Source of the DNA: Candidatus Zhuqueibacterota bacterium
GTDB lineage: Bacteria; Zhuqueibacterota; Zhuqueibacteria; Thermofontimicrobiales; Thermofontimicrobiaceae
Reading direction: 5' to 3'
Length of the DNA: 24,251 nucleotides
Assembly (NCBI GenBank): GCA_049322915.1
Contig: JBMOPW010000002.1
Coordinates: 137,483-161,733 of the forward strand
Shown here: positions 3,219 through 20,161 of the stretch, piece after piece
Position numbering within the stretch: the stretch's first letter is position 1
Layout of the letters: the number at the start of each line of letters is the position of its first letter
Position numbers and translations under genes: made by a program
The notes under the pieces: model-generated
What the model was told of the DNA's origin: nothing
The model's database searches: none
The model's input: only the letters and a program-made list of their open reading frames with translations

Positions 3219-3584
3219 ATGTATAAAGTATCCATAAAAACGAGTTTCGCCGCGGCGCACCGGCTTCGGGAGTATGAGGGAGCATGCGAGAATTTGCACG
3301 GACATAATTGGTCGGTAATTGCACAGGTCAGCGCCGGCCAATTGGACCATCTGGGCATTGCCTATGATTTTAAACAATTGAAACAGGATGTGAAGAGCAT
3401 CGTGGATCGGCTGGACCATCAAATGCTGAATGATATTGATCCGTTCACACAGATCAATCCCACGTCGGAGAATGTCGCCAAATTCATTTTCGATTCGTTG
3501 CAGACGAAGCTGCCGCCCCATTTGAAGGTGGTGTCTGTTGCTGTTGGCGAGTCCGAGAATTATACGGCGACGTACGAGGCATGA
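3219..3584 (+). CDS. queD: 6-carboxy-5,6,7,8-tetrahydropterin synthase
   Basis: FAAAHRL, CENLHGHNW, LDHQMLND and PTSEN motifs; first gene of the que cluster; GAGG SD. Confidence 0.93.
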   Translation: MYKVSIKTSFAAAHRLREYEGACENLHGHNWSVIAQVSAGQLDHLGIAYDFKQLKQDVKSIVDRLDHQMLNDIDPFTQINPTSENVAKFIFDSLQTKLPPHLKVVSVAVGESENYTATYEA

Positions 3585-4216
3585 AAATAAATGAAATTTT
3601 TTACAGCATTCAGGGCGAATCCACTTTTGCAGGGCTTCCCTGCGCGTTCGTCCGATTGAGCGGCTGCAACCTGCGCTGCCGCTATTGCGACACGGCCTAC
3701 GCCTATGACGAGGGGCAGGAAATGTCCGTTCAGTCCGTGCTGGATGAAGTGCGTCATTTTCAGTGCGGTATGGTGGAAATTACCGGGGGAGAGCCGCTGT
3801 TGCAAACGGAGACGTCGGAATTGGCTCAGCGCCTGCTCGTTGCCGGCAACCAGGTGTTGGTCGAAACCAATGGCAGCCTGGATATTTCCGCGTTGCCAGC
3901 GGGAGTCAGCCGAATCGTGGATGTGAAATGTCCCGGAAGCGGCGAATCGCAGCGGATGCATTGGCCCAATCTTCAGCCATTGAATTTCAATGATAATGTG
4001 AAATTTGTCGTATCCGGCAAAGCAGATTTTGACTGGGCTGTTGAAATCGTTCAGCGATACGATCTGACAGCGAAAACGCATGTTTTGATTTCACCCTGCT
4101 TTGGAATCGTCGCTCCGGTAATGCTGGCGGAATGGATTTTACAAACGCATCTGCCGTTGCGGATGCAATTGCAGTTGCATAAATTGATCTGGGATGCGAG
4201 TCAGCGAGGCGTGTAA
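3581..4216 (+). CDS. queE: 7-carboxy-7-deazaguanine synthase (radical SAM)
   Basis: [19 protein letters not shown] (CxxxCxxC), ITGGEP, VETNG and QLHK; ATGA overlap with queD. Confidence 0.94.
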
Positions 4217-4217
4217 C

Positions 4218-4901
4218 ATGGCAGAGAAAGCAGTCGTTTTGTTGAGCGGTGGCGTGGATTCTTCCACGGCTCTGGCCATTGCCCGAGACCGGGGATTTGA
4301 GGTGTATGCCATCAGTTTCCGGTACGGGCAGCGCCATTCATTTGAATTGATAGCTGCAAAGAAAATAGCGACGGCGCTGGGTGCAAAAGCGCAACTGATC
4401 ATTGATGTGAGCCTTGATAAAATAGGCGGTTCATCGCTGACAGCGGATATCGATGTGCCCAAACACCGCGATATGAGCGAAACAGATGAAATTCCAGTCA
4501 CCTACGTTCCGGCGCGGAATACGATCTTTTTATCGCTGGCCCTGGGCTGGGCCGAGAGCCTGGGCGCGTATCATATCTTCATTGGCGCCACGGCGGTCGA
4601 TTATTCCGGCTATCCGGATTGCCGGCCAGAATTCATCCGCGCGTTCGAGCAGGTCGCCAACCTGGGCACAAAGATCGGGGTTCAGGGCGGACAGATACAC
4701 ATTCACGCGCCGCTGATTCACTTGAGCAAAGCAGAAATTATCCGAAAAGGGACGCAACTGGGGGTGGACTATTCGCTCACATTGAGCTGCTACGATCCAT
4801 CGCCGGACGGAAAAGCCTGCGGCGCCTGCGATAGCTGTCTGCTGCGGAAGAAGGGATTCGAGGAGGCCGGTTTGCCGGATCCGACTCGATATATCAACTG
4901 A
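4218..4901 (+). CDS. queC: 7-cyano-7-deazaguanine synthase
   Basis: PP-loop [28 protein letters not shown] and Zn site SCY...CGACDSC; start moved to ATG 4218, just after the queE stop. Confidence 0.96.
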
Positions 4902-4911
4902 AGGAGTGACC

Positions 4912-5337
4912 ATGTCCACAGAACACGATCGGTATAAAAATTTAACCCTGCTGAAAGAGAACGAGAGCCGCTACCCGGAGAATCCGGACGAAGCGAGGCT
5001 GGAGGTTTTTGAGAACCGATATTCGCATCGGGATTATTGGATCAGCTTTGACTGCCCGGAATTCACCGCCCGATGTCCCATCACCAATCAGCCGGATTTC
5101 GGAAAAATAATCATCCGCTACGTGCCGGACCGATTGTGCATTGAAAGCAAGTCGCTGAAGCTCTACCTGTTTTCTTTCCGCAACCACGGCACGTTTCACG
5201 AAGAGGCGGTGAACCGGATTCTGGACGACGTCGTGAAAGCCTGCCAGCCACGCGAGGCCATTGTCAGCGGCGACTTCAACCCGCGTGGCGGCATCGCCAT
5301 CAAAGTCGATGCAAGCTATCAGGCAGCTCAGAAGTAA
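4912..5337 (+). CDS. queF: NADPH-dependent preQ0 reductase, unimodular (type I)
   Basis: EFTARCPITNQPDF (catalytic Cys and Asp), QueF motif ESKSLKLYL, FHE and PRGGI; AGGAG SD before ATG 4912. Confidence 0.93.
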   Translation: MSTEHDRYKNLTLLKENESRYPENPDEARLEVFENRYSHRDYWISFDCPEFTARCPITNQPDFGKIIIRYVPDRLCIESKSLKLYLFSFRNHGTFHEEAVNRILDDVVKACQPREAIVSGDFNPRGGIAIKVDASYQAAQK

Positions 5338-10687: not shown

Positions 10688-11929
10688 TCACTCCGGGGGT
10701 GAGGCCAATTTTCGGCGCAGGCGGTTCAATCGAAACATGAGGCTATCGCGACATTCAACCAGTTGACAGTCGCTCCGAAGCTGCTCCACAATATCGAGTT
10801 TCGCCAAAGCCTGAAGCACGATTTTCTCCGCCTGTTCCAGATCTCGGGCGCGATGCTCGAAATATTTTGCCCTTTCCTCGTACGGTTCCAATCGGAACGG
10901 ACCCAGTGCAGAGAGCCCTTCCCACAGTTTCAGCGCTTCTTCCCAGCGCTCCAGCCGTTTCAGACAATACCCCAACCGGATGCCACTGTCCTGTTTGTGC
11001 TGCGGCAGCGCAGCGCTGCTGAATACCTGCTGGTAGATGCGGACATTCTGTTCCCACTGTTCAATATGGTCGTAATGATTGGCCAATGAAAGCAATTCCG
11101 CCGGTCTGTTCAGGTGCGCCAATGGTTTTTCGTGGACATCGTGCAGCAGAATCGTGAGCGTCACCATCGAGAGAATGTCCATTTCGTTGTGATAAAAAAC
11201 AGGCCTCAGGGGAATCGCATTTTTCGTTCGCAGATAGTCGAAGTACATCTGCGGAATGAAAGAGGAAGGGATGTCCCCCTGGCGTTGAACGCTCAGGACG
11301 TGACGCTCCAGCGAACCCAGACTGCAATCCGGCAGGCTATTTTTCCAGATGCGCCGGGCAGCGTGGAGCAGGTCAAAATGACCCGGTTCGGCATTTCGTA
11401 TTTTCATCCGGTGATAAGTGAATCGCGTGATTAACAGCGGCCAATCATAACTCTTGCCATTGAATGAGATGATGAAATCGAATTTTTCCATCATCGCCAT
11501 GATTTCTTGCAGCATGGCTGGTTCGTCCGGAAAGTCGCGGAGGAAAAATTGCTTCACGCGGAAGACATCGTCCTCGAAATGGCCAAGCCCGGCTAAAAAG
11601 ATGTAGGTTCCGCTTCCGCCGGCCAGTCCTGTGGTCTCCGTATCGAAGAAGACAGCGCGGCGCAGGTCGAGGTTCATGAGTTTTTCATCGCTGCCGGCTA
11701 ACCTCAAAAATTGCGGCGAGATCGAATCGATGCGGCGCAGTGGGAATAATCCGTGTTCGTGGTTCAGGCTGTAGTCCCGGGACACGAGCAGCGTCGCCCC
11801 GGCCGGATTTGCCACAAATTTGCCATTGAGAACCGATTCAATGGCATCGGTCGATGGCAGCGATGCCGGTTCTGATTTTCGTGGCTGCTGGATCGCTTCG
11901 AGAAAGCGAAGTCGCTTGCGTATGTTCAT
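10688..11929 (-). CDS. YprB/MrfB-like DEDDh exonuclease (RNase_H_2) with C-terminal TPR-like helices
   Basis: FFDTETTGL, SFNGKSYD, HFDLLH and YHNEMD motifs; C-terminal helical repeats; 413 aa. Confidence 0.85.
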   Translation of the reverse strand: MNIRKRLRFLEAIQQPRKSEPASLPSTDAIESVLNGKFVANPAGATLLVSRDYSLNHEHGLFPLRRIDSISPQFLRLAGSDEKLMNLDLRRAVFFDTETTGLAGGSGTYIFLAGLGHFEDDVFRVKQFFLRDFPDEPAMLQEIMAMMEKFDFIISFNGKSYDWPLLITRFTYHRMKIRNAEPGHFDLLHAARRIWKNSLPDCSLGSLERHVLSVQRQGDIPSSFIPQMYFDYLRTKNAIPLRPVFYHNEMDILSMVTLTILLHDVHEKPLAHLNRPAELLSLANHYDHIEQWEQNVRIYQQVFSSAALPQHKQDSGIRLGYCLKRLERWEEALKLWEGLSALGPFRLEPYEERAKYFEHRARDLEQAEKIVLQALAKLDIVEQLRSDCQLVECRDSLMFRLNRLRRKLASPPE

Positions 11930-12164
11930 GGATTGGCGGCTCGATGGGTAAGGTTTGAACGTGCGCTGCTTTTTATAAGCATGAAAATTAAAGACATGCT
12001 ATTACACTTCACTCCGAATTCATAGTTCCCTGAAGAAATTTCATGGCCGGCGCTGGCGGCGTATTTTATCATTGATTATTACAGAATTTCTTTTATCTTT
12101 ACACACATATTTTCCAGCCGAATGACGGAAAATGAACTACTCACTCAAACGTCCCGGAGGAAGG

Positions 12165-13328
12165 ATGCAAAAAAAAATAATCTATCTGGATAATGCAGCG
12201 ACTACCTACCCGAAACCTCAAGAAGTTTATGATTTTATGTATGAATTCTACCAGAAACACGGCGTCAATCCCGGCCGCTCCGGCTATGACATGACGCTGG
12301 AAACCGAAGAAGTGGTTCATGGTACGCGAAAAATGCTGACGGAATTCTTCAACGGGACGGATCCCAACCGACTCACCTTCAGCTACAATGCCAGCGATTC
12401 TTTGAATATGATCATCCAGGGTATGGCTGAAAAAGGCGATCATATTATCACCAGCAATGTGGAACATAATTCAGTGCTGCGTCCATTGTATCATCTGGCA
12501 AATGATGGGGTGATCGACCTGAGTTACATTCCATTTGATGAACATGGCTTCATCGATCCGGATGATGTGAAAAAAACGATCCGGAAAAATACAAAAATGG
12601 TGATCATCAATCACGGTTCCAATGTGATCGGAACGGTGCAACCGATCGCTGAGATTGGAAAGATTTGCAAGCAGGCCGGCGTTTATTTTGCGGTGGATGC
12701 CAGCCAGACAGCCGGCGCCCGGAAAGTGGATGTCAAAGCCATGAATATCGATCTGTTGGCGTTCACCGGTCACAAATGCCTGATGGGACCGACCGGCATC
12801 GGCGGGTCCTACATTGGCGAGGATGTTCCGATCCGCGGCACGCGTTTCGGCGGCACCGGCGTGCGTTCAGCGCATCGGTTTCACCTTGAAGAATTTCCGT
12901 ACCGGATGGAATGCGGCACGCTGAATATCGTCGGCGTGGCCGGACTTCACGCCGGGCAGAAATGGATCGCCTCGATGGGCCTGGAAAATATTCATGCCCA
13001 GGAAATGAAGCTGTGGAATCGACTGAGAACCGGGCTGCAAAAGATCGATCGGGTGATCACCTATTGCGCTGACACCGACGCCAATCATAATGCGGTACTG
13101 AGTTTCAATATTGAAGGCTGGGAAGCCGGCGACGTCGGCACCATTCTGGATGTGGATTACAATATTGCCTGCCGCACCGGACTGCAATGTGCACCGCTGG
13201 TTCACGAACAAATTGGCACGGACAAAATTCACGGCACTGTGCGACTGAGCCTTGGCCCTTTCAATACCGAAGCCCACATCGATGCCGCCATCCACGCCGT
13301 GGAAGAAATCGTTGCGATCCAACGATAG
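12165..13328 (+). CDS. Cysteine desulfurase-like class V PLP enzyme
   Basis: IYLDNAATT, EHNSV, DASQ, FTGHK (PLP Lys) and RTGLQCAP catalytic Cys loop; GGAGG SD before ATG 12165. Confidence 0.9.
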   Translation: MQKKIIYLDNAATTYPKPQEVYDFMYEFYQKHGVNPGRSGYDMTLETEEVVHGTRKMLTEFFNGTDPNRLTFSYNASDSLNMIIQGMAEKGDHIITSNVEHNSVLRPLYHLANDGVIDLSYIPFDEHGFIDPDDVKKTIRKNTKMVIINHGSNVIGTVQPIAEIGKICKQAGVYFAVDASQTAGARKVDVKAMNIDLLAFTGHKCLMGPTGIGGSYIGEDVPIRGTRFGGTGVRSAHRFHLEEFPYRMECGTLNIVGVAGLHAGQKWIASMGLENIHAQEMKLWNRLRTGLQKIDRVITYCADTDANHNAVLSFNIEGWEAGDVGTILDVDYNIACRTGLQCAPLVHEQIGTDKIHGTVRLSLGPFNTEAHIDAAIHAVEEIVAIQR

Positions 13329-13351
13329 CGCGTCGTTACAGTTTTGAAGAG

Positions 13352-13390
13352 AACCCATCCGTTTCCTATGAGGAATCTGATGGGTTTTTT
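13352..13390 (+). terminator. Putative intrinsic terminator
   Basis: AACCCATC...GATGGGTT stem followed by a T run, 23 nt after the desulfurase stop. Confidence 0.65.
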
Positions 13391-13510
13391 ATTTTCAACC
13401 AATGACTTTCAACGTGTGGCCTGAAGCGAGAGAGCGACGAATGGGCAAATTCGGATTGGAAATGGCCTGGCCAAACGTCCCGGACAGTCTGTATTCTGCT
13501 TCGACGGATT

Positions 13511-14809
13511 TCATTGCAGCACAAGCGCATCGGCGACCAGTTCAGCCACGGTCTTAATTTCAACGCCCAGTTTGTATTCCTGATTCAATTCCATGAGCTG
13601 ATCGATGCAATTGTGGCAGGGCGTGGCGACGATTTTAGCGCCAGTCCTTCGAATCTGCTCCGCCTTAATTTTGCCGGACTCGATTCTTCGCTCTTTGTAT
13701 TCGCCCATGGAGAGCTGTCCGCCACCGCCGCCGCAGCAATAGTTGTTTTCACGATTGGGCGTCATTTCGATGAACGTGGACACAGCGTGTTTGAGCACGA
13801 AACGCTGTTCCTCGATAACGCCGCCGGTTCGCACCATGTTGCACGGGTCGTGCAGCGTCACAGGCAGGGAATTTCTGGCAGGATCGAGTTGAATTCTGCC
13901 GCTGCGAATATAGTCCGCGATGAGTTCAATCACCGAGATCACTTCGAACGGGTAAGGCTTTCTGATCCAGTTGGGGCCTTCCCAGCGAATCGCCCTGAAG
14001 CCATGGCCGCATTCCGCCAGCACAAGGGTTTTCGCGCGCAGCTTCATCGTCTCGTTGTACAAACGGTCGATCAGCTCCCGCGCCGATTCGTCGTCGCCGG
14101 AGAAATAGGCGTAATTCGTCACATCGTATGTCTGCGTGGAGATTGTCCAGCTCTCTTTGGCTGCGTAATAAATTTTAGCCATGGCGCTGATGGAGAGAGG
14201 GAAGAACTTCGGCTCGCGCGGATTCAATGTGTAAAGGATACGAGCGTCCGGCATGTCCCGGGGAATAGCCGCGGACGGATCGTTCACCTCCATCTGCAGA
14301 TCTTCCTCCAGCCATGTCAGCGTGTCGATAAAATCATCGGTCGGAATTCCCATATTATTCCCGGTTTCGATGGCCGCATTCACCGTGGACTGTAAGCCGG
14401 GGGAGACGCGGCCCATTTTCACCAGCATGGAGCGCGCTGTGCGAACCAGCAGGGGAATATCGATGCCGACGGTGCAATGGGTCGCGCATCGACCGCACAT
14501 CGTGCAGCCGCCGAAGATAATATCGACCATTTCCTCGACTGTCCCGGCATCGAGGTCGCGGGCGCCGACCCATCCCGGAAAAATAGCGCCCAGCACGGTG
14601 TGGTGACGCCGATAGAGCCGCGATAATTGCCGTACCTTGTTGGCCGGCAAATAGCGCGAATCATTGGTGGCCAGGTAATAATGGCAGGTCTCGCCGCACA
14701 GGCCACAGCTCACGCAACTGTTGAGATAGCTTCTCAATCTGGCATCCAGATTGCGCTGGAAAAAATCCAGGGCTTTTTCAAATCGGTCATTCAGTCTGTC
14801 GTACGTCAT
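13511..14809 (-). CDS. HdrD/DsrK/TmcB/HmcF-family Fe-S oxidoreductase (two [4Fe-4S] motifs plus CCG domain)
   Basis: CVSCGLCGETC, CTMCGRCATHC, ECGH, HDPC, CCGGGGG and PCHNC; likely start MTYDRL at 14809 with ATGA overlap. Confidence 0.9.
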   Translation of the reverse strand: MTYDRLNDRFEKALDFFQRNLDARLRSYLNSCVSCGLCGETCHYYLATNDSRYLPANKVRQLSRLYRRHHTVLGAIFPGWVGARDLDAGTVEEMVDIIFGGCTMCGRCATHCTVGIDIPLLVRTARSMLVKMGRVSPGLQSTVNAAIETGNNMGIPTDDFIDTLTWLEEDLQMEVNDPSAAIPRDMPDARILYTLNPREPKFFPLSISAMAKIYYAAKESWTISTQTYDVTNYAYFSGDDESARELIDRLYNETMKLRAKTLVLAECGHGFRAIRWEGPNWIRKPYPFEVISVIELIADYIRSGRIQLDPARNSLPVTLHDPCNMVRTGGVIEEQRFVLKHAVSTFIEMTPNRENNYCCGGGGGQLSMGEYKERRIESGKIKAEQIRRTGAKIVATPCHNCIDQLMELNQEYKLGVEIKTVAELVADALVLQ

Positions 14810-15432
14810 ACATTCCGCCTTTTCATTGGCCAGATGCCGCGGCTGCCAAACAGGATCCCGAGATGAATTCGGGATGTGAAGAAATACAGGAGATGACTGA
14901 GTTTTCCCAGAGGGATGTATAAAAAGATGACGCTGGCGTAAATCAACAGCGCGCGGATCGGAACCTCTTTCACAACAGTCAGCGCTGAAACGATGTGAAA
15001 ACCGGTGACGAGCAGGTTGCTGAAGTAGTCGTCCGGCGTGGAAATCGATTTCAGTCGTGAGGAAAAGAGCCGCTTGAAAAATATCGATGCGCCGCACACT
15101 GCGGAAATGAAGAGAATCGAGACCGCTGCCTTACTCGTTATATCGGGAATGGTGAAGTTCGCGAAATGAACGAGCAGCAGAGCAAAGCTCAAAAATGTGC
15201 CAATGTGATAAATGATCCCGGCGGCGTAGGTCGGCAGGTGAAGATAGGCGGTTTCTTTTTTCAGTGGAGACATGGCCCCTGAAAATGAGTACAGAATAGC
15301 GGATAGAATGGAGCCTCGCCGTTGCGCGAAGTCCTGAGTGCGATGTAGAAACAGCACCTGAAATAGTTTGGCAATGCAGATTGTACCACAGATAGAAAAT
15401 GCGAGCAAAAGGATCCAATGGTATAAGGTCAT
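14806..15432 (-). CDS. NarI/DsrM/TmcC/HdrE-like membrane (cytochrome b-type) subunit
   Basis: About 5 hydrophobic helices; YHIG, KRL...ISTPDDY and LYIPLGKLSH motifs typical of NarI-like proteins; translationally coupled to the Fe-S gene. Confidence 0.8.
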   Translation of the reverse strand: MTLYHWILLLAFSICGTICIAKLFQVLFLHRTQDFAQRRGSILSAILYSFSGAMSPLKKETAYLHLPTYAAGIIYHIGTFLSFALLLVHFANFTIPDITSKAAVSILFISAVCGASIFFKRLFSSRLKSISTPDDYFSNLLVTGFHIVSALTVVKEVPIRALLIYASVIFLYIPLGKLSHLLYFFTSRIHLGILFGSRGIWPMKRRNV

Positions 15433-15444
15433 GAATTTCCTCGA

Positions 15445-15762
15445 TTAGACACAGCCATCCGGTTTGGGAAGGCCGGCAATTTTGCAGGCGCCTTTTGCCG
15501 GTCCCAGCGGGAACAACTCGTAGATTTCTCTCAGGCGGATGCCGGTTGACTGGCAGATTTTTCTGACCATGGGGGCCATGTTATGTTCTTTCCAGTGTTC
15601 GCGGATGTGGTTGATAACGGCCCAATGTTTTTCAGATAACTCCCCGGTCCCGTCGTTTTTGGCAAATAGAATAGCAACATCTTCGTTCCAGATTTCTGGT
15701 TGCTGCAGAAAGCCATCGCCATCGACATGAAACGTCTGTCCATCAATGACAAGTTCAGGCAT
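15445..15762 (-). CDS. dsrC: DsrC/TusE/DsvC-family sulfur carrier with both C-terminal cysteines
   Basis: VDGDGFL, HWAVI, YELFPLGP and C-terminal ACKIAGLPKPDGCV (Cx10C); AAGGAG SD. Confidence 0.88.
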   Translation of the reverse strand: MPELVIDGQTFHVDGDGFLQQPEIWNEDVAILFAKNDGTGELSEKHWAVINHIREHWKEHNMAPMVRKICQSTGIRLREIYELFPLGPAKGACKIAGLPKPDGCV

Positions 15763-15800
15763 AGTGGTGATCTCCTTAGTTAATGGTGAAAAGTCAGAAA

Positions 15801-15829
15801 AATATACAAAAAAAATTGGGTCATTGCAA
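15801..15829 (-). promoter_or_regulatory. Putative promoter of the dsrC-like operon
   Basis: Minus strand TTGCAA (15829-15824), 17 nt spacer, TATATT (15806-15801). Confidence 0.55.
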
Positions 15830-16002
15830 ATTATTTTTCACCGAATATTATGCGGCGCAAAATTTCTTGCGGCCTGGCCCGATGAAGCCCGATCCGATTG
15901 CGAGATGATGAATCGCCCCAGAACGGAAACATCGGCCGGGATGTTCAACTCACGGGTGCGTTCATGCATGAAAAAGACATGAACCGCACCAGTGAGAGAA
16001 TC

Positions 16003-16797
16003 TCAGCCATTGCGTTTTAGTTTGCCCGTTCGTTTGGCATAGACCTCCGCGCGGCTGAACACCCACAATCCGAAGGGGATCAGAAAGAGTCCAATGCCAA
16101 TCAGGATGGCGATATCGCCGGCCAGGTCTGCAATCGAGGCATTTTCCAGCATGGACTTCCGAATCGCGCGCAAGGTATATGTCCCCGGCGAAATCATCGA
16201 CAGCGGGCGCAGCCATTCTGGCAGCACCGACACTTCGTAATACACGCCGGAGATGAGCAGAATGATCGCCTGAAAAATGTGCGTTGCCTGAGCCCCTTTT
16301 TCCGGGGACAAGAGCGGCATGACCGCGCCAATGAGTCCCATGCCTAAAAATGAAAAGCTTGAAATCAGAAGCACGACGAACGTCGCCGGGATATTCGCCT
16401 GGGCGAAACTGATTTTGAAAAATATCGCCACCAGCGCCATGATGAGAATCGACCGGAAAATGGCGTAGAGGACGGCAAAAGTACATTGTCCAAGCAGATA
16501 GGTAAGCCGGTAAATAGGCGCCATAAACGTGTACTCGATGGTTCCTTCCCAGCGCTCCCAGGCCACTGCCTCGGCCACATCGTGGAACAAAATGGAGAGA
16601 AATCCCCAGAGCAGCGAGCCAATGATGAGATAGAGAATCTTGTCCGGATCGCCCCAGCCAATGAACCCAATGGTGACGGTATTCACGACATTGTAAACCA
16701 GAAATACGCTCTCCCACGCGGCGTATCGTCTCACGAGATTGAAATTTCGCGCTACAAAAGCGAGCGATGCTTTGGATTCAGATAGGATAATATTCAC
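16003..16797 (-). CDS. ABC-2 type exporter permease
   Basis: About 6 TM helices; ERWEGTIEY and SGVYY..SVLPEWL..P.TY motifs; GTG start with AAGGAG SD. Confidence 0.9.
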   Translation of the reverse strand: MNIILSESKASLAFVARNFNLVRRYAAWESVFLVYNVVNTVTIGFIGWGDPDKILYLIIGSLLWGFLSILFHDVAEAVAWERWEGTIEYTFMAPIYRLTYLLGQCTFAVLYAIFRSILIMALVAIFFKISFAQANIPATFVVLLISSFSFLGMGLIGAVMPLLSPEKGAQATHIFQAIILLISGVYYEVSVLPEWLRPLSMISPGTYTLRAIRKSMLENASIADLAGDIAILIGIGLFLIPFGLWVFSRAEVYAKRTGKLKRNG

Positions 16798-16930
16798 AAT
16801 TGACTCCTTTCAGAAAACCTGTATTCGGCGTTCACGGGTCGATTCGATCCCTGATTAATCTCCCGGCTAAACGCACCTGTTCGTTTCAATATGTCGATCG
16901 GATAATTCGGTTAATCCGCGGAAAATCGAA

Positions 16931-17764
16931 TTAGTCTTCCTCGTCGACGCGCAAATCAGTGCCGGTCACATGGACGAACACATCCTCGATAGTCACCGGT
17001 TTTCCGTTGCCGGGAACGAGGCGTTTCAAATTTTCCGCAGTGTCACAGGCGACGAACTTGCCATTGTGGATGATGGCAATTCGGTCGCAAATGCGCTCCA
17101 CCTCTTCCAGATCATGAGACGTGAGCAGCACCGTCGTGTCATGGGACTTGCGGATTTTCAAAACGAAATCCTGCACCTGCCGTTTGGAAACCGGGTCGAG
17201 CCCGGTGGTTGGTTCATCCAGCAGCAGCAGGGCCGGGGATGTGAACAATGCCCGCGCAATGGCGATCTTCTGCTGCATGCCGCGCGAGAGATTTTCCAGC
17301 GGTTCATCGATTTTATTCCGGGAGAAAAGCAGCTCTTCGAGAATGGCGATCGCCCGCTCCTTCGCCTCTTTCAGCGGCAGTCCATACAATCTCGCTGCGT
17401 AACTCAGGTTCTCCCAGGCCGAGAGCCGTTTGAAAAATGCAGCATCCACCGAAACGCGATTGATGAGCCGGCGCACGCGCATTGGATTTTTTACGACATC
17501 CGTGCCGAAAACGTGAAGTGTGCCACTATCGGGCAGTATCAGCGTGGAAAGCATGCGGATGAGCGTGGATTTGCCCGAGCCGTTCGGCCCCAGGATCCCG
17601 AATATTTCACCCTGTGGGATGGTGAACGTCACGTCGTCGACGGCCATCAATTTTATCTTTTTGCCCGGCAAAATTCGACCCAGCAGTTTCCGAGAGCCGT
17701 TTGATTTTTTCTTTGAACGGGAATAAAAATATTTTGTGGCAGCATAGCTTTCAATCGCATTCAT
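16931..17764 (-). CDS. ABC exporter ATP-binding protein (DrrA/NodI-like)
   Basis: Walker A GPNGSGKST, signature LSRGMQQ, Walker B LLLLDEPTTGLD and H-loop TSH. Confidence 0.95.
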   Translation of the reverse strand: MNAIESYAATKYFYSRSKKKSNGSRKLLGRILPGKKIKLMAVDDVTFTIPQGEIFGILGPNGSGKSTLIRMLSTLILPDSGTLHVFGTDVVKNPMRVRRLINRVSVDAAFFKRLSAWENLSYAARLYGLPLKEAKERAIAILEELLFSRNKIDEPLENLSRGMQQKIAIARALFTSPALLLLDEPTTGLDPVSKRQVQDFVLKIRKSHDTTVLLTSHDLEEVERICDRIAIIHNGKFVACDTAENLKRLVPGNGKPVTIEDVFVHVTGTDLRVDEED

Positions 17765-18691: not shown

Positions 18692-20161
18692 ATGAATTCT
18701 CTGGAAGGCTATTTTGATACGTTTCGGAAAAACATCATTGGCATTGATCAGACATTTCGTTCGCCGTACGGTGAGCAGCGGATTCTGTACGCGGATTGGA
18801 TCGCCAGCGGTCGGTTATACAGACCCATCGAAGAGAGAGTATCCGATTTCTTCGGGCCGTTCGTGGGCAATACGCACACGGAGACAAGCGTCACCGGCAC
18901 ATCCATGACGCGGAGTTACCATCGCGCTCAGGAAATCATCAAGCGCCATGTCAATGCCGGGCCGGAGGACGTGATCATCAATTTTGGCTTTGGCATGACA
19001 GCGGCCATCATTAAATTTCAGCGAATTCTGGGGCTCAAAATTCCGGAGCAATTGAAATCCTGCACCAACCTGTCCGAAGAATTGCGGCCGGTCGTTTTTA
19101 TCACGCACATGGAACATCATTCGAATCAGACGTCATGGCTGGAAACGCTAGCAGAGGTAGTCGTGATTCCGCCGGATGAAAACGGTTTGGTGGATCCCCG
19201 GCTGCTGGAGCCGCTGCTCGTTAAATATCAAAATCGCCAGACGAAAATCGGTTCATTCTCCGCCTGCTCCAATGTCACAGGGATCGAAACGCCGTACCAC
19301 GAGTTGGCCCGAATCATGCATGAACACGGCGGCTATTGTTTCGTCGATTTTGCCGCATCCGCGCCCTACGTGAGCATGAATATGCATCCTGAGAATCCGC
19401 TGGAAAAACTGGATGCAATTTTCTTTTCGCCGCACAAATTTCTGGGGGGACCCGGTTCGTCCGGAGTGCTCATTTTTGATTCGAAATTGTACCAGAGCAA
19501 AGTCCCTGATCAACCCGGCGGCGGCACTGTGGACTGGACCAATCCCTGGGGACAGCATCGGTACGTCTCGAACATCGAAGCGCGGGAAGATGGCGGAACG
19601 CCCGGCTTTTTACAGGCGATTCGATCCGCCCTGTCCGTTCTGCTCAAGGAACAGATGAGTGTGGAAAAATTAAATGCGAGGGAGAGGCAGCTAACGGCTG
19701 CCGCGTTTGCCGGACTTCGAAAAATTCCCGGTCTTCATCTCCTGGCCGACCAAATCGAAAAGCGGCTGGGCGTCCTTTCGTTTTATGTCGACGGGATTCA
19801 TTACAACCTGCTTGTCAAGCTGCTGAACGATCGCTTCGGCATTCAGGTGCGCGGTGGATGTTCCTGCGCCGGAACTTACGGCCACTACCTGCTGCATGTG
19901 GACCGCGATACATCCCGTAAAATCACCGAGAAAATCGACCACGGTGATCTGTCCGAAAAACCCGGCTGGGTGCGCCTTTCGCTGCATCCGACCATGACCG
20001 ATGAGGAGATGAACTTCATTGTCTCCGCCATTGCGGATATTGTCGAGAACATTTCGAACTGGCGCCGCGACTATGAGTACAATCCATCAACGAATGAGTT
20101 CATCCATCGCGACCACGGTTTTCATTATGGCGCCGAGATCGATCCCTGGTTTACTCTTTGA
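18692..20161 (+). CDS. Class V PLP enzyme, long cysteine desulfurase/selenocysteine lyase-like subfamily
   Basis: YADWIASG, EHHSN, DFAA, FSPHKFLGGPG (PLP Lys), EDGGTP and RGGCSCAG; GAGG SD. Confidence 0.88.
   Translation: MNSLEGYFDTFRKNIIGIDQTFRSPYGEQRILYADWIASGRLYRPIEERVSDFFGPFVGNTHTETSVTGTSMTRSYHRAQEIIKRHVNAGPEDVIINFGFGMTAAIIKFQRILGLKIPEQLKSCTNLSEELRPVVFITHMEHHSNQTSWLETLAEVVVIPPDENGLVDPRLLEPLLVKYQNRQTKIGSFSACSNVTGIETPYHELARIMHEHGGYCFVDFAASAPYVSMNMHPENPLEKLDAIFFSPHKFLGGPGSSGVLIFDSKLYQSKVPDQPGGGTVDWTNPWGQHRYVSNIEAREDGGTPGFLQAIRSALSVLLKEQMSVEKLNARERQLTAAAFAGLRKIPGLHLLADQIEKRLGVLSFYVDGIHYNLLVKLLNDRFGIQVRGGCSCAGTYGHYLLHVDRDTSRKITEKIDHGDLSEKPGWVRLSLHPTMTDEEMNFIVSAIADIVENISNWRRDYEYNPSTNEFIHRDHGFHYGAEIDPWFTL

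Follow-up and report, generated by a model that had tools for sequence, protein, structure and literature searches.

The small sulfur carrier DsrC and the membrane reductase that serves it are usually treated as markers of dissimilatory sulfur metabolism that depends on DsrAB. The reductase DsrMKJOP is a menadiol:DsrC-trisulfide oxidoreductase, and one CCG motif together with a cysteine in the motif T/GECGH is common to DsrK, TmcB and HmcF (Barbosa et al., 2024, PMC10861901). Here we describe a locus in a 24,251-nucleotide stretch of DNA, referred to below as the window, from Candidatus Zhuqueibacterota bacterium (GenBank assembly GCA_049322915.1, contig JBMOPW010000002.1, positions 137,483 to 161,733 of the forward strand). 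It encodes a cysteine desulfurase, a two-cysteine DsrC, a putative membrane cytochrome b and an iron-sulfur (Fe-S) protein with a CCG domain. We propose, at a probability of about one half, that these four genes form a DsrAB-free module that would release sulfide with electrons from quinol. We report its gene content, the family placement of its products, their conserved residues and predicted folds, and the co-occurrence of the four genes without a sulfite reductase.

The locus resembles DsrMK and DsrMKJOP in the two-cysteine arm of its DsrC, in a NarI-type subunit, in a cytoplasmic subunit with two [4Fe-4S] motifs, one CCG domain and the ECGH cysteine and, as we presume, in having quinol reduce a DsrC that is oxidised or sulfurated. 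It differs from them in that its genome lacks DsrAB, in that it has no DsrJOP and in that the sulfur donor is apparently a cysteine desulfurase. The nearest labelled relatives of both reductase subunits are instead TmcBC of TmcABCD and HmcEF of HmcABCDEF, known from Desulfovibrio. However, the module misses the equivalog cut-offs of these proteins by far and has no periplasmic multihaem cytochrome c (TmcA, HmcA), while dsrC heads its operon and a desulfurase gene travels with it. HdrED of Methanosarcina likewise combines a membrane cytochrome b with a CCG protein and reduces a disulfide with a membrane carrier, and the Fe-S subunit has a fold match to HdrB. Unlike HdrED, the module has one full CCG domain, its substrate would be the protein DsrC and not the coenzyme M-coenzyme B disulfide (CoM-S-S-CoB), and its carrier would be menaquinone where that of HdrED is methanophenazine (PMC10861901 and general background).

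Two further comparisons are useful. Mycobacterial EtfD, which can be overlaid on an HdrDE model, combines five transmembrane helices, haem b and a site for menaquinone with two [4Fe-4S] and two CCG domains (PMC13083937). In contrast to the window genes it is a single fused polypeptide (PDB 9ojn) that passes electrons from the electron-transferring flavoprotein to menaquinone, has no DsrC partner, and carries a linear [3Fe-4S] cluster in one of its two CCG domains. In the SufS-SufE/SufU, CsdA-CsdE and IscS-TusA...TusE systems, as here, a type II desulfurase is encoded with a small cysteine-bearing acceptor. Unlike those acceptors, the one in the module is a DsrC with two cysteines and is linked to a redox complex in the membrane, which points to reductive sulfide release rather than to biosynthetic delivery.

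Full-text searches, with subscription journals and supplements outside their scope, yielded no description that brings together DsrC, a TmcBC-like pair and a cysteine desulfurase. The neighbourhood analysis in a study of Dsr evolution (PMC10504309) is confined to organisms with DsrABCMK, and the relevant passages of that paper, of PMC8477390 and of a subsurface metagenome study (PMC7509429) describe no such module. The locus is thus apparently an undescribed, conserved variant of the DsrC/quinol reductase theme that does without sulfite reductase and would be coupled to a desulfurase. New here are the placement beside TmcB and HmcF, the structural match of both subunits to EtfD, an invariant PKPDGCV sequence in DsrC and two genome-wide co-occurrence tables.

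Conservation of the four genes

Fifty-five loci were retrieved with the Fe-S protein, of which 39 carry a module-type Fe-S gene. By label these belong to Bacteroidota (24 loci) and to Ignavibacteriota, Acidobacteriota and Bacillota (one each), and 12 have no assigned phylum, KSB1 and B38 among them. The membrane gene adjoins the Fe-S gene in 39/39 and dsrC is adjacent in 36/39; the exceptions are a contig that begins inside the membrane gene (L034), a degenerate locus (L039) and one with an unrelated gene upstream (L052). A desulfurase gene lies within 3 kb in 32 of the 39 loci; in 16 of them it is convergent, and in the others it is co-oriented, either downstream (11 loci) or upstream (five). 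When the open reading frames (ORFs) were clustered all against all, these four were the sole real gene families common to at least 29 of the 39 loci, the next most widespread clusters being antisense shadow ORFs and then a small ORF in 10 loci. An earlier sequence-only reading of the window had delimited a unit of dsrC, membrane gene and Fe-S gene. That trio holds in synteny across the related loci, and the reading had missed a further member, the cysteine desulfurase gene at 12165-13328, so that we count four genes and not three.

Co-occurrence was also counted genome by genome in two sets, without a statistic, since related genomes are not independent. The first was an even draw of 401 species genomes from Bacteroidales, the order of the genome (G170) that holds locus L008, with desulfurase orthologues accepted at E <= 1e-110. 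The Fe-S gene was present in 45 of these genomes, the desulfurase orthologue in 46, both in 44 and neither in 354, and the discordant genomes are one with only a fragment of the Fe-S gene and two with only the desulfurase. The two genes are no more than 1.2 kb apart on one contig in 37 of the 44 double carriers and on different contigs in the other seven. The second set comprised 167 species genomes of the window organism's own phylum, with thresholds of E <= 1e-100 for the Fe-S match and at least 70% identity for the desulfurase orthologue; one unpublished genome (G158) counts only as a negative. Fourteen had an Fe-S match, and the match in G060, at 41% identity, is probably a different paralogue, which leaves 13 module genomes. 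The desulfurase orthologue was found in 17/167 (next-best match, 51% identity) and in all 13 of the module genomes. Such a pattern over several phyla is hard to explain without a functional tie between the desulfurase and the Fe-S gene.

Some copies are interrupted. The Fe-S gene has an in-frame stop in G176 (TAA), G441 (TAG) and G192 (TGA), L034 is frameshifted and in L039 the module genes are present only as fragments, all of which may reflect decay or assembly error. No cultured carrier was found in a cluster look-up for three of the proteins. The nearest Fe-S homologues outside the module come from Moorella/Neomoorella and a metagenome-assembled genome of Clostridia (L042-L048), with 48-57% identity. 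We rejected them as the same system, since neither dsrC nor the membrane gene occurs beside them. The Fe-S homologue of L042 and of L043 is followed by a protein of about 1070 residues, the L043 copy being a 1067-residue HdrA2/MvhD-like flavoprotein, and these loci look like a soluble Hdr-like system.

The locus could also be one part of an ordinary dsr pathway that is split, its dsrAB genes lying at another place in the genome, the outcome that the sequence-only reading had named as fatal to its proposal. The assembly (6.25 Mb in 45 contigs, 96.3% complete, 2.5% contaminated) is not closed and contains sat, which speaks for this explanation. However, neither dsrA (TIGR02064) nor NIR_SIR (PF01077) has a match in it at E <= 0.001, the latter model being positive in 11 of 14 control genomes, and nothing was found for aprA beyond a 24.9-bit match. 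DsrJ likewise gave no match, which weighs little, the model being silent in all control genomes. No dsrA above cut-off occurs in any of the 401 Bacteroidales genomes, the 45 carriers included, or in five further carriers from other lineages. Within the window organism's phylum only G007 has dsrA above cut-off, and G007 has no module-type Fe-S gene at E <= 1e-100; among the carriers there, only G023 (78% complete, 6% contaminated) holds a dsrA fragment. The Fe-S subunit also falls outside the DsrK clade, as described below. We give a split pathway next to no credence and reject it on the dsrA, NIR_SIR and aprA negatives in this genome and in the carriers. The search for dsrAB has thus left the proposal standing, and the suggestion that the organism does not reduce sulfite is in line with it.

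The genome has a single DsrC, the one described here, and five matches to the DsrK model, the best of which is the module Fe-S gene. A gene for sulfate adenylyltransferase (sat, G000 C1:163318-164448, 426.9 bits) may serve the formation of adenosine phosphosulfate and its 3'-phospho derivative (APS/PAPS) for sulfation.

Carrier and membrane pair compared with known families

The DsrC of the window ends in KGACKIAGLPKPDGCV, in which Cys93, ten residues, Cys104 and Val105 follow one another, so that both C-terminal cysteines noticed by the sequence-only reading (Cx10C-V) are indeed in place. They are invariant over 37 aligned rows. The protein exceeds the cut-offs of both PF04358 (116.6 against 24.9 bits) and TIGR03342 (101.8 against 53.5 bits). 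Among eight PDB chains listed, the closest relatives are DsrC chains of DsrAB structures (2xsj_C, E 2.2e-29; 1ji8_A, 3.1e-28; 2v4j_C, 4e-28) and the weakest is 7syb_A ("Sulfurtransferase", E 3.2e-5). By these comparisons the carrier is of the true DsrC type, since the matches to DsrC chains of DsrAB complexes far exceed that to 7syb_A. In all 36 related loci with dsrC the protein has 105 residues and ends in GAC[KR][IVL]AGLPKPDGCV. The Asp of PKPDGCV is invariant in the window and these 36 loci, where two DsrC chains aligned from DsrAB complexes have Thr. A DsrC-specific motif, AGLPKPTG.C, has been defined with one mismatch tolerated (DiSCo, PMC8477390), and AGLPKPDGCV agrees with it at the cost of that one mismatch, Thr to Asp. 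No fusion of DsrC with a class V aminotransferase (PF00266) was seen among 15 longer DsrC relatives, which carries little weight with 41 candidates scored; the fusion partners in those 15 were ThiF, DsrD, DsrE and other domains.

A TusE-type role, in which the carrier would belong to a biosynthetic relay for tRNA thiolation or cofactors and the membrane pair would merely keep it reduced, has a slim chance of being correct. DsrC and TusE belong to one family (TIGR03342), and IscS-Tus relays begin with a cysteine desulfurase. The carrier nevertheless scores only 73.5 bits against a cut-off of 191 on the TusE equivalog NF008562, and both cysteines and the DsrC-type arm are invariant. Moreover, the distribution is patchy (45/401 Bacteroidales, 14/167 in the own phylum) while 2-thiouridine is near-universal, and the genome has a separate TusA on contig C1, beside another desulfurase paralogue and a DsrE-like gene.

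The Fe-S protein matches the Pfam CCG and Fer4 families, with only one full CCG domain detected. On the NCBIfam models it scores 317.9 bits for TmcB (NF045724, cut-off 735), 313 for HmcF (NF045711, cut-off 750) and 243.5 for DsrK (NF045796, cut-off 400); genuine DsrK from three dsrAB-type genomes reach 719-735 bits and genuine HmcF 856-890 bits. Membership in DsrK, TmcB or HmcF was rejected, all three curated cut-offs being missed. The hallmarks of the superfamily are all there, namely two [4Fe-4S] motifs, one CCG domain (CxnCCGxmCxxC) and the ECGH cysteine. Over 35 rows all 14 cysteines are invariant (C32/35/38/42, C102/105/108/112, C267, C323, C358, C359, C398 and C401), and E266-C267-G268-H269 (AECGH) stays invariant even when HmcF and Moorella-type rows are added.

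Its phylogenetic place was determined from 93 proteins with an IQ-TREE quick search under LG+C20 with posterior mean site frequencies (PMSF), with support from the SH-like approximate likelihood ratio test (SH-aLRT). The rows comprised the window, 14 of the 39 related loci spread over the range of identity, five of eight Moorella-type loci, two Myxococcota, four HmcF and three DsrK loci, and 64 representatives from an exhaustive homologue search, and they were labelled from NCBIfam; of 150 listed homologues, 67 outside 380-700 residues were dropped, and a further 19 with partial query coverage were removed by eye. The DsrK-type clade holds 27 rows (SH-aLRT 99) and the window is outside it. It lies within a 45-row clade (SH-aLRT 96) and, nested in that, a 25-row clade (SH-aLRT 95) made up of all 15 module rows, seven TmcB/HmcF-type rows (support 100) and three rows without a label. 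The split recurs with FastTree, where the smallest clade of module and Hmc/Tmc proteins has 24 leaves (support 88) and no DsrK-labelled row, and the proteins above the DsrK cut-off form a separate 16-leaf clade (support 99). The phylogeny that the sequence-only reading had suggested as a check thus sets the subunit beside TmcB/HmcF in both trees.

The AlphaFold2 model of the Fe-S subunit has a predicted local distance difference test (pLDDT) score of 92.2. Foldseek places EtfD (9ojn) first (E 1.5e-13, template modelling score 0.74 on the query), followed by LutA and several HdrB chains (about 3e-5 for HdrB), and EtfD is also the sole match in a PDB search by sequence. Taken with the architecture reported for EtfD (PMC13083937), this fold match suggests that the window encodes as two separate genes the halves that are joined in a solved quinone-linked wire.

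The 208-residue membrane subunit, shorter than DsrM (about 330 residues), has no Pfam match, and neither single-sequence nor profile searches of the PDB gave a meaningful one. NCBIfam scores are weak, 30.4 bits for HmcE (cut-off 275) and 27.3 bits for TmcC, and membership in either was rejected because the curated cut-offs are missed. An AlphaFold model from a 35-sequence alignment (pLDDT 90.5) is predicted to have the NarI fold, the top eight Foldseek matches all being Escherichia coli NarI (E 0.016-0.057). In hhalign comparisons, the profile of the family reaches a probability of 94.8 (E 5e-8) against a verified HmcE, which itself scores 303.7 bits on the HmcE model, and of 23.1 against a verified DsrM (519.6 bits). 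By these measures both subunits are nearer to TmcBC/HmcEF than to DsrMK, and are members of neither by curated thresholds. Among the conserved residues, H76, K177 and H180 are invariant (36/36 rows), H65 is kept in 34/36, and H190, the fourth candidate haem ligand, is His in 16/36 (Tyr in 12, Gln in 6).

Proposed sulfur donor and electron flow, and alternatives

The desulfurase passes TIGR01977 (EF2568-type) with 434.6 bits (cut-off 377). Its closest PDB match is a cysteine desulfurase (5b7s_A, E 4e-63), followed by SufS chains at 1e-49 to 1e-52, and both the lysine that binds pyridoxal phosphate (PLP; HK motif) and the loop cysteine (RTGLQCA) are invariant over 28 rows. It is an extra copy, since the genome holds several more class V desulfurase paralogues, at about 30% identity. 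Its almost perfect co-occurrence with the other genes suggests that this dedicated desulfurase would supply the otherwise missing sulfur donor.

In the mechanism that we propose, the desulfurase would convert L-cysteine to alanine and retain the sulfur as a persulfide, and this sulfane sulfur would then pass to Cys104, which sits on the flexible arm at the C-terminus of DsrC. Cys93 would resolve the Cys104 persulfide, giving sulfide and a Cys93-Cys104 disulfide; alternatively, a trisulfide would form. The membrane complex would re-reduce DsrC: menaquinol would give up electrons to heme b, and these would travel over two [4Fe-4S] clusters to a noncubane CCG cluster and Cys267. The presence of MenA (113.6 bits) makes a menaquinone pool plausible. 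The net reaction would be cysteine + menaquinol -> alanine + H2S + menaquinone, which may constitute a quinone-linked electron sink or a cysteine-sulfur respiration. From the genes described above we infer the individual chemical steps, the direction in which electrons would flow and whatever energy may be conserved. As far as sequence analysis reaches, the minimal quinone-linked DsrC reductase without sulfite reduction that the sequence-only reading had put forward is supported.

Several points weigh against this mechanism, which we continue to favour. The potential of the couple cysteine/(alanine + H2S) is about -100 mV (an estimate from Thauer-type tables) and that of menaquinone about -70 mV. 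With the couple so near the menaquinone potential, the driving force would be small, the direction is not obvious, and the reaction would run close to equilibrium and be driven by concentrations. The same uncertainty over driving force is stated for the DsrC trisulfide (PMC10861901). The invariant Asp in PKPDGCV marks a divergence of the module DsrC, whose partner could be something else. In the window the desulfurase gene is convergent and hence not co-transcribed with the other three, and the available DNA of seven of the 39 loci contains no desulfurase; five of these have less than 1.1 kb of downstream flank, and one (L021) lacks it with flanks of 3.9 kb and 6 kb. One partner occurs without the other in three genomes of the Bacteroidales sample and four of the own phylum. 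Finally, the membrane subunit has just three near-invariant His residues, and a di-heme arrangement is not established because the fourth candidate, H190, is so often replaced; EtfD has a single heme (PMC13083937).

The same hardware could be fed from another sulfane source, such as polysulfide, thiosulfate, organic persulfides or cystine, with the desulfurase acting on a different substrate or in an accessory role. TIGR01977 is functionally uncharacterised save for the related SclA (selenocysteine lyase) model, on which the enzyme reaches 307.6 bits (cut-off 525), two loci (L021 and L029) have no desulfurase nearby, and in L007 and L014 a second class V enzyme, of the kind encoded at 18692-20161 of the window, stands beside the module. 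We nevertheless hold this rather unlikely, given that the co-occurrence of desulfurase and Fe-S gene is near-perfect, unlinked cases included, and that the PLP lysine and catalytic cysteine are kept in an enzyme whose closest solved relatives are cysteine desulfurases.

The resemblance to SclA also bears on selenium. If the enzyme were a selenocysteine lyase and DsrC carried selenium, the use of selenium by this genome (two selD genes, one with an in-frame TGA) would fit; but the SclA score is under the cut-off, nothing ties DsrC to selenium, and a separate desulfurase-like region that abuts selD on contig C14 would already serve that element. We consider this route highly improbable.

Electrons might instead flow the other way, the complex oxidising persulfurated DsrC and passing electrons to menaquinone with cysteine sulfur as the donor. 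DsrMK(JOP) is described as acting in this sense in sulfur oxidisers (introduction of DiSCo, PMC8477390), and the estimated thermodynamic margin is small in both directions. Against this, no consumer of DsrC trisulfide (rDsrAB) was found in the window organism's own genome or in the 401 Bacteroidales genomes, and the Fe-S subunit groups with reductive Tmc/Hmc-type proteins. Reverse flow therefore seems to us quite improbable, and quinol-driven release of sulfide from cysteine is the reading that we carry forward.

A broader proposal, which we advance tentatively as a possibility, is that cysteine sulfur acts as a respiratory acceptor, through a quinol:DsrC oxidoreductase and a desulfurase, in about one in ten species of Bacteroidales and, more sporadically, in other anaerobes that include Ignavibacteriota and Acidobacteriota. 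In that case DsrC would be the cytoplasmic substrate long sought for Tmc and Hmc, because the module subunits are the nearest relatives of TmcBC/HmcEF. A minimal DsrC reductase of this kind may have been the starting point for the Tmc and Hmc complexes of sulfate reducers.

Layout of the locus, its surroundings and wider meaning

The positions of the module genes are collected in Table 1. On the minus strand dsrC is followed after a 12-nt gap by the membrane gene, which overlaps the Fe-S gene by 4 nt (ATGA), and the ORF coordinates thus bear out the tight packing first noticed by the sequence-only reading. The desulfurase and Fe-S genes converge, with 182 nt between their stops. For the desulfurase, the start at 12165 is favoured over 12132 because homologues have about 386 residues.

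Table 1. Positions in the window of the four module genes and of the candidate promoter.
Feature	Position	Strand	Remarks
dsrC, two-cysteine DsrC-type sulfur carrier	15445..15762	(-)	105 aa; Cys93, Cys104 and invariant Cys70
NarI/HmcE/TmcC-like membrane subunit	14806..15432	(-)	208 aa; b-type cytochrome and quinol site presumed
Cytoplasmic TmcB/HmcF/DsrK-like Fe-S subunit	13511..14809	(-)	432 aa; two CxxCxxCxxxC, ECGH C267, one CCG domain
Type II cysteine desulfurase, TIGR01977 family	12165..13328	(+)	387 aa; ORF opens at 12132; convergent with Fe-S gene
Promoter-like hexamers 5' of dsrC	15801..15830	(-)	weak evidence; 9/12 consensus positions

AAGGAG stands 9 nt ahead of the ATG of dsrC. A promoter for the unit is plausible from a consensus match, TTGCAA-17-TATATT at 15829-15801, so that the hexamers behind the earlier claim of a promoter exist; such sites are, however, no commoner here than by chance (four in the region against 2.3 +/- 1.7 in shuffles). 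A terminator scan found none on the minus strand 3' of the Fe-S gene, and an Rfam scan of 13000-16200 gave no match at E <= 0.1. Among the 21 window ORFs scanned with Pfam/NCBIfam-type models there is no dsrAB, dsrJOP, dsrEFH/tusBCD or cytochrome c family, and none contains a CxxCH motif, which agrees with the absence of these genes from the window as read before.

A Cys-rich ORF of about 80 residues (CPNY..C...YC...W..C.R...FCPDFVLPD) lies directly 5' of dsrC in 10 of the 39 module loci (L021, L024, L026 at 4744-4992, L027, L032, L033, L035, L038, L050 and L051). It has no Pfam or NCBIfam match and is absent from the window and its genome (G000). The second, divergent class V PLP enzyme of the window, at 18692-20161 (+), has 489 residues, matches Aminotran_5 at E 1.7e-41 and scores 128.6 bits on the SufS subfamily model, under its cut-off. 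Orthologues lie directly 5' of dsrC in L007 (78% identity) and L014 (66%), whereas in the window this gene is separated from dsrC by two small ORFs and a pair of ABC-2 transporter genes (16003-17764). The transporter was rejected as a part of the module, not being kept beside it in related loci. Adjoining the desulfurase, 10688-11929 (-) encodes a 413-residue RNase_H_2/PolB-exonuclease-like protein (PF13482, E 4e-38), of which L007 has a 65%-identical copy at the same position. An ordinary queD-queE-queC-queF cluster for preQ1 synthesis occupies 3219-5337 (+).

Elsewhere in the genome, a sulfur-relay-like neighbourhood on contig C1 (G000 C1:40208-48246) contains a desulfurase paralogue (40208-41281), the one TusA of the genome (42425-42625) and a DsrE-family gene (47977-48246); the two DsrE-family matches of the genome (43.7 and 22.9 bits) are both away from the module. 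The selD genes are at C14:561047-563146 and C2:57472-58398. The former lies within a 736-residue open frame, directly behind a cysteine-desulfurase-like region, and may be a NifS-SelD fusion, and the latter, with one in-frame TGA, is probably a selenoprotein SelD.

If the proposed mechanism is correct, the module would be a new source of sulfide from organic sulfur, tied to quinone and present in common anaerobic heterotrophs. The occurrence of dsrC or dsrMK-like genes in metagenomes would then be no proof of sulfate or sulfite reduction. The module would also offer a simple two-subunit system for the reduction of DsrC, and for testing the action of TmcB and HmcF on DsrC.

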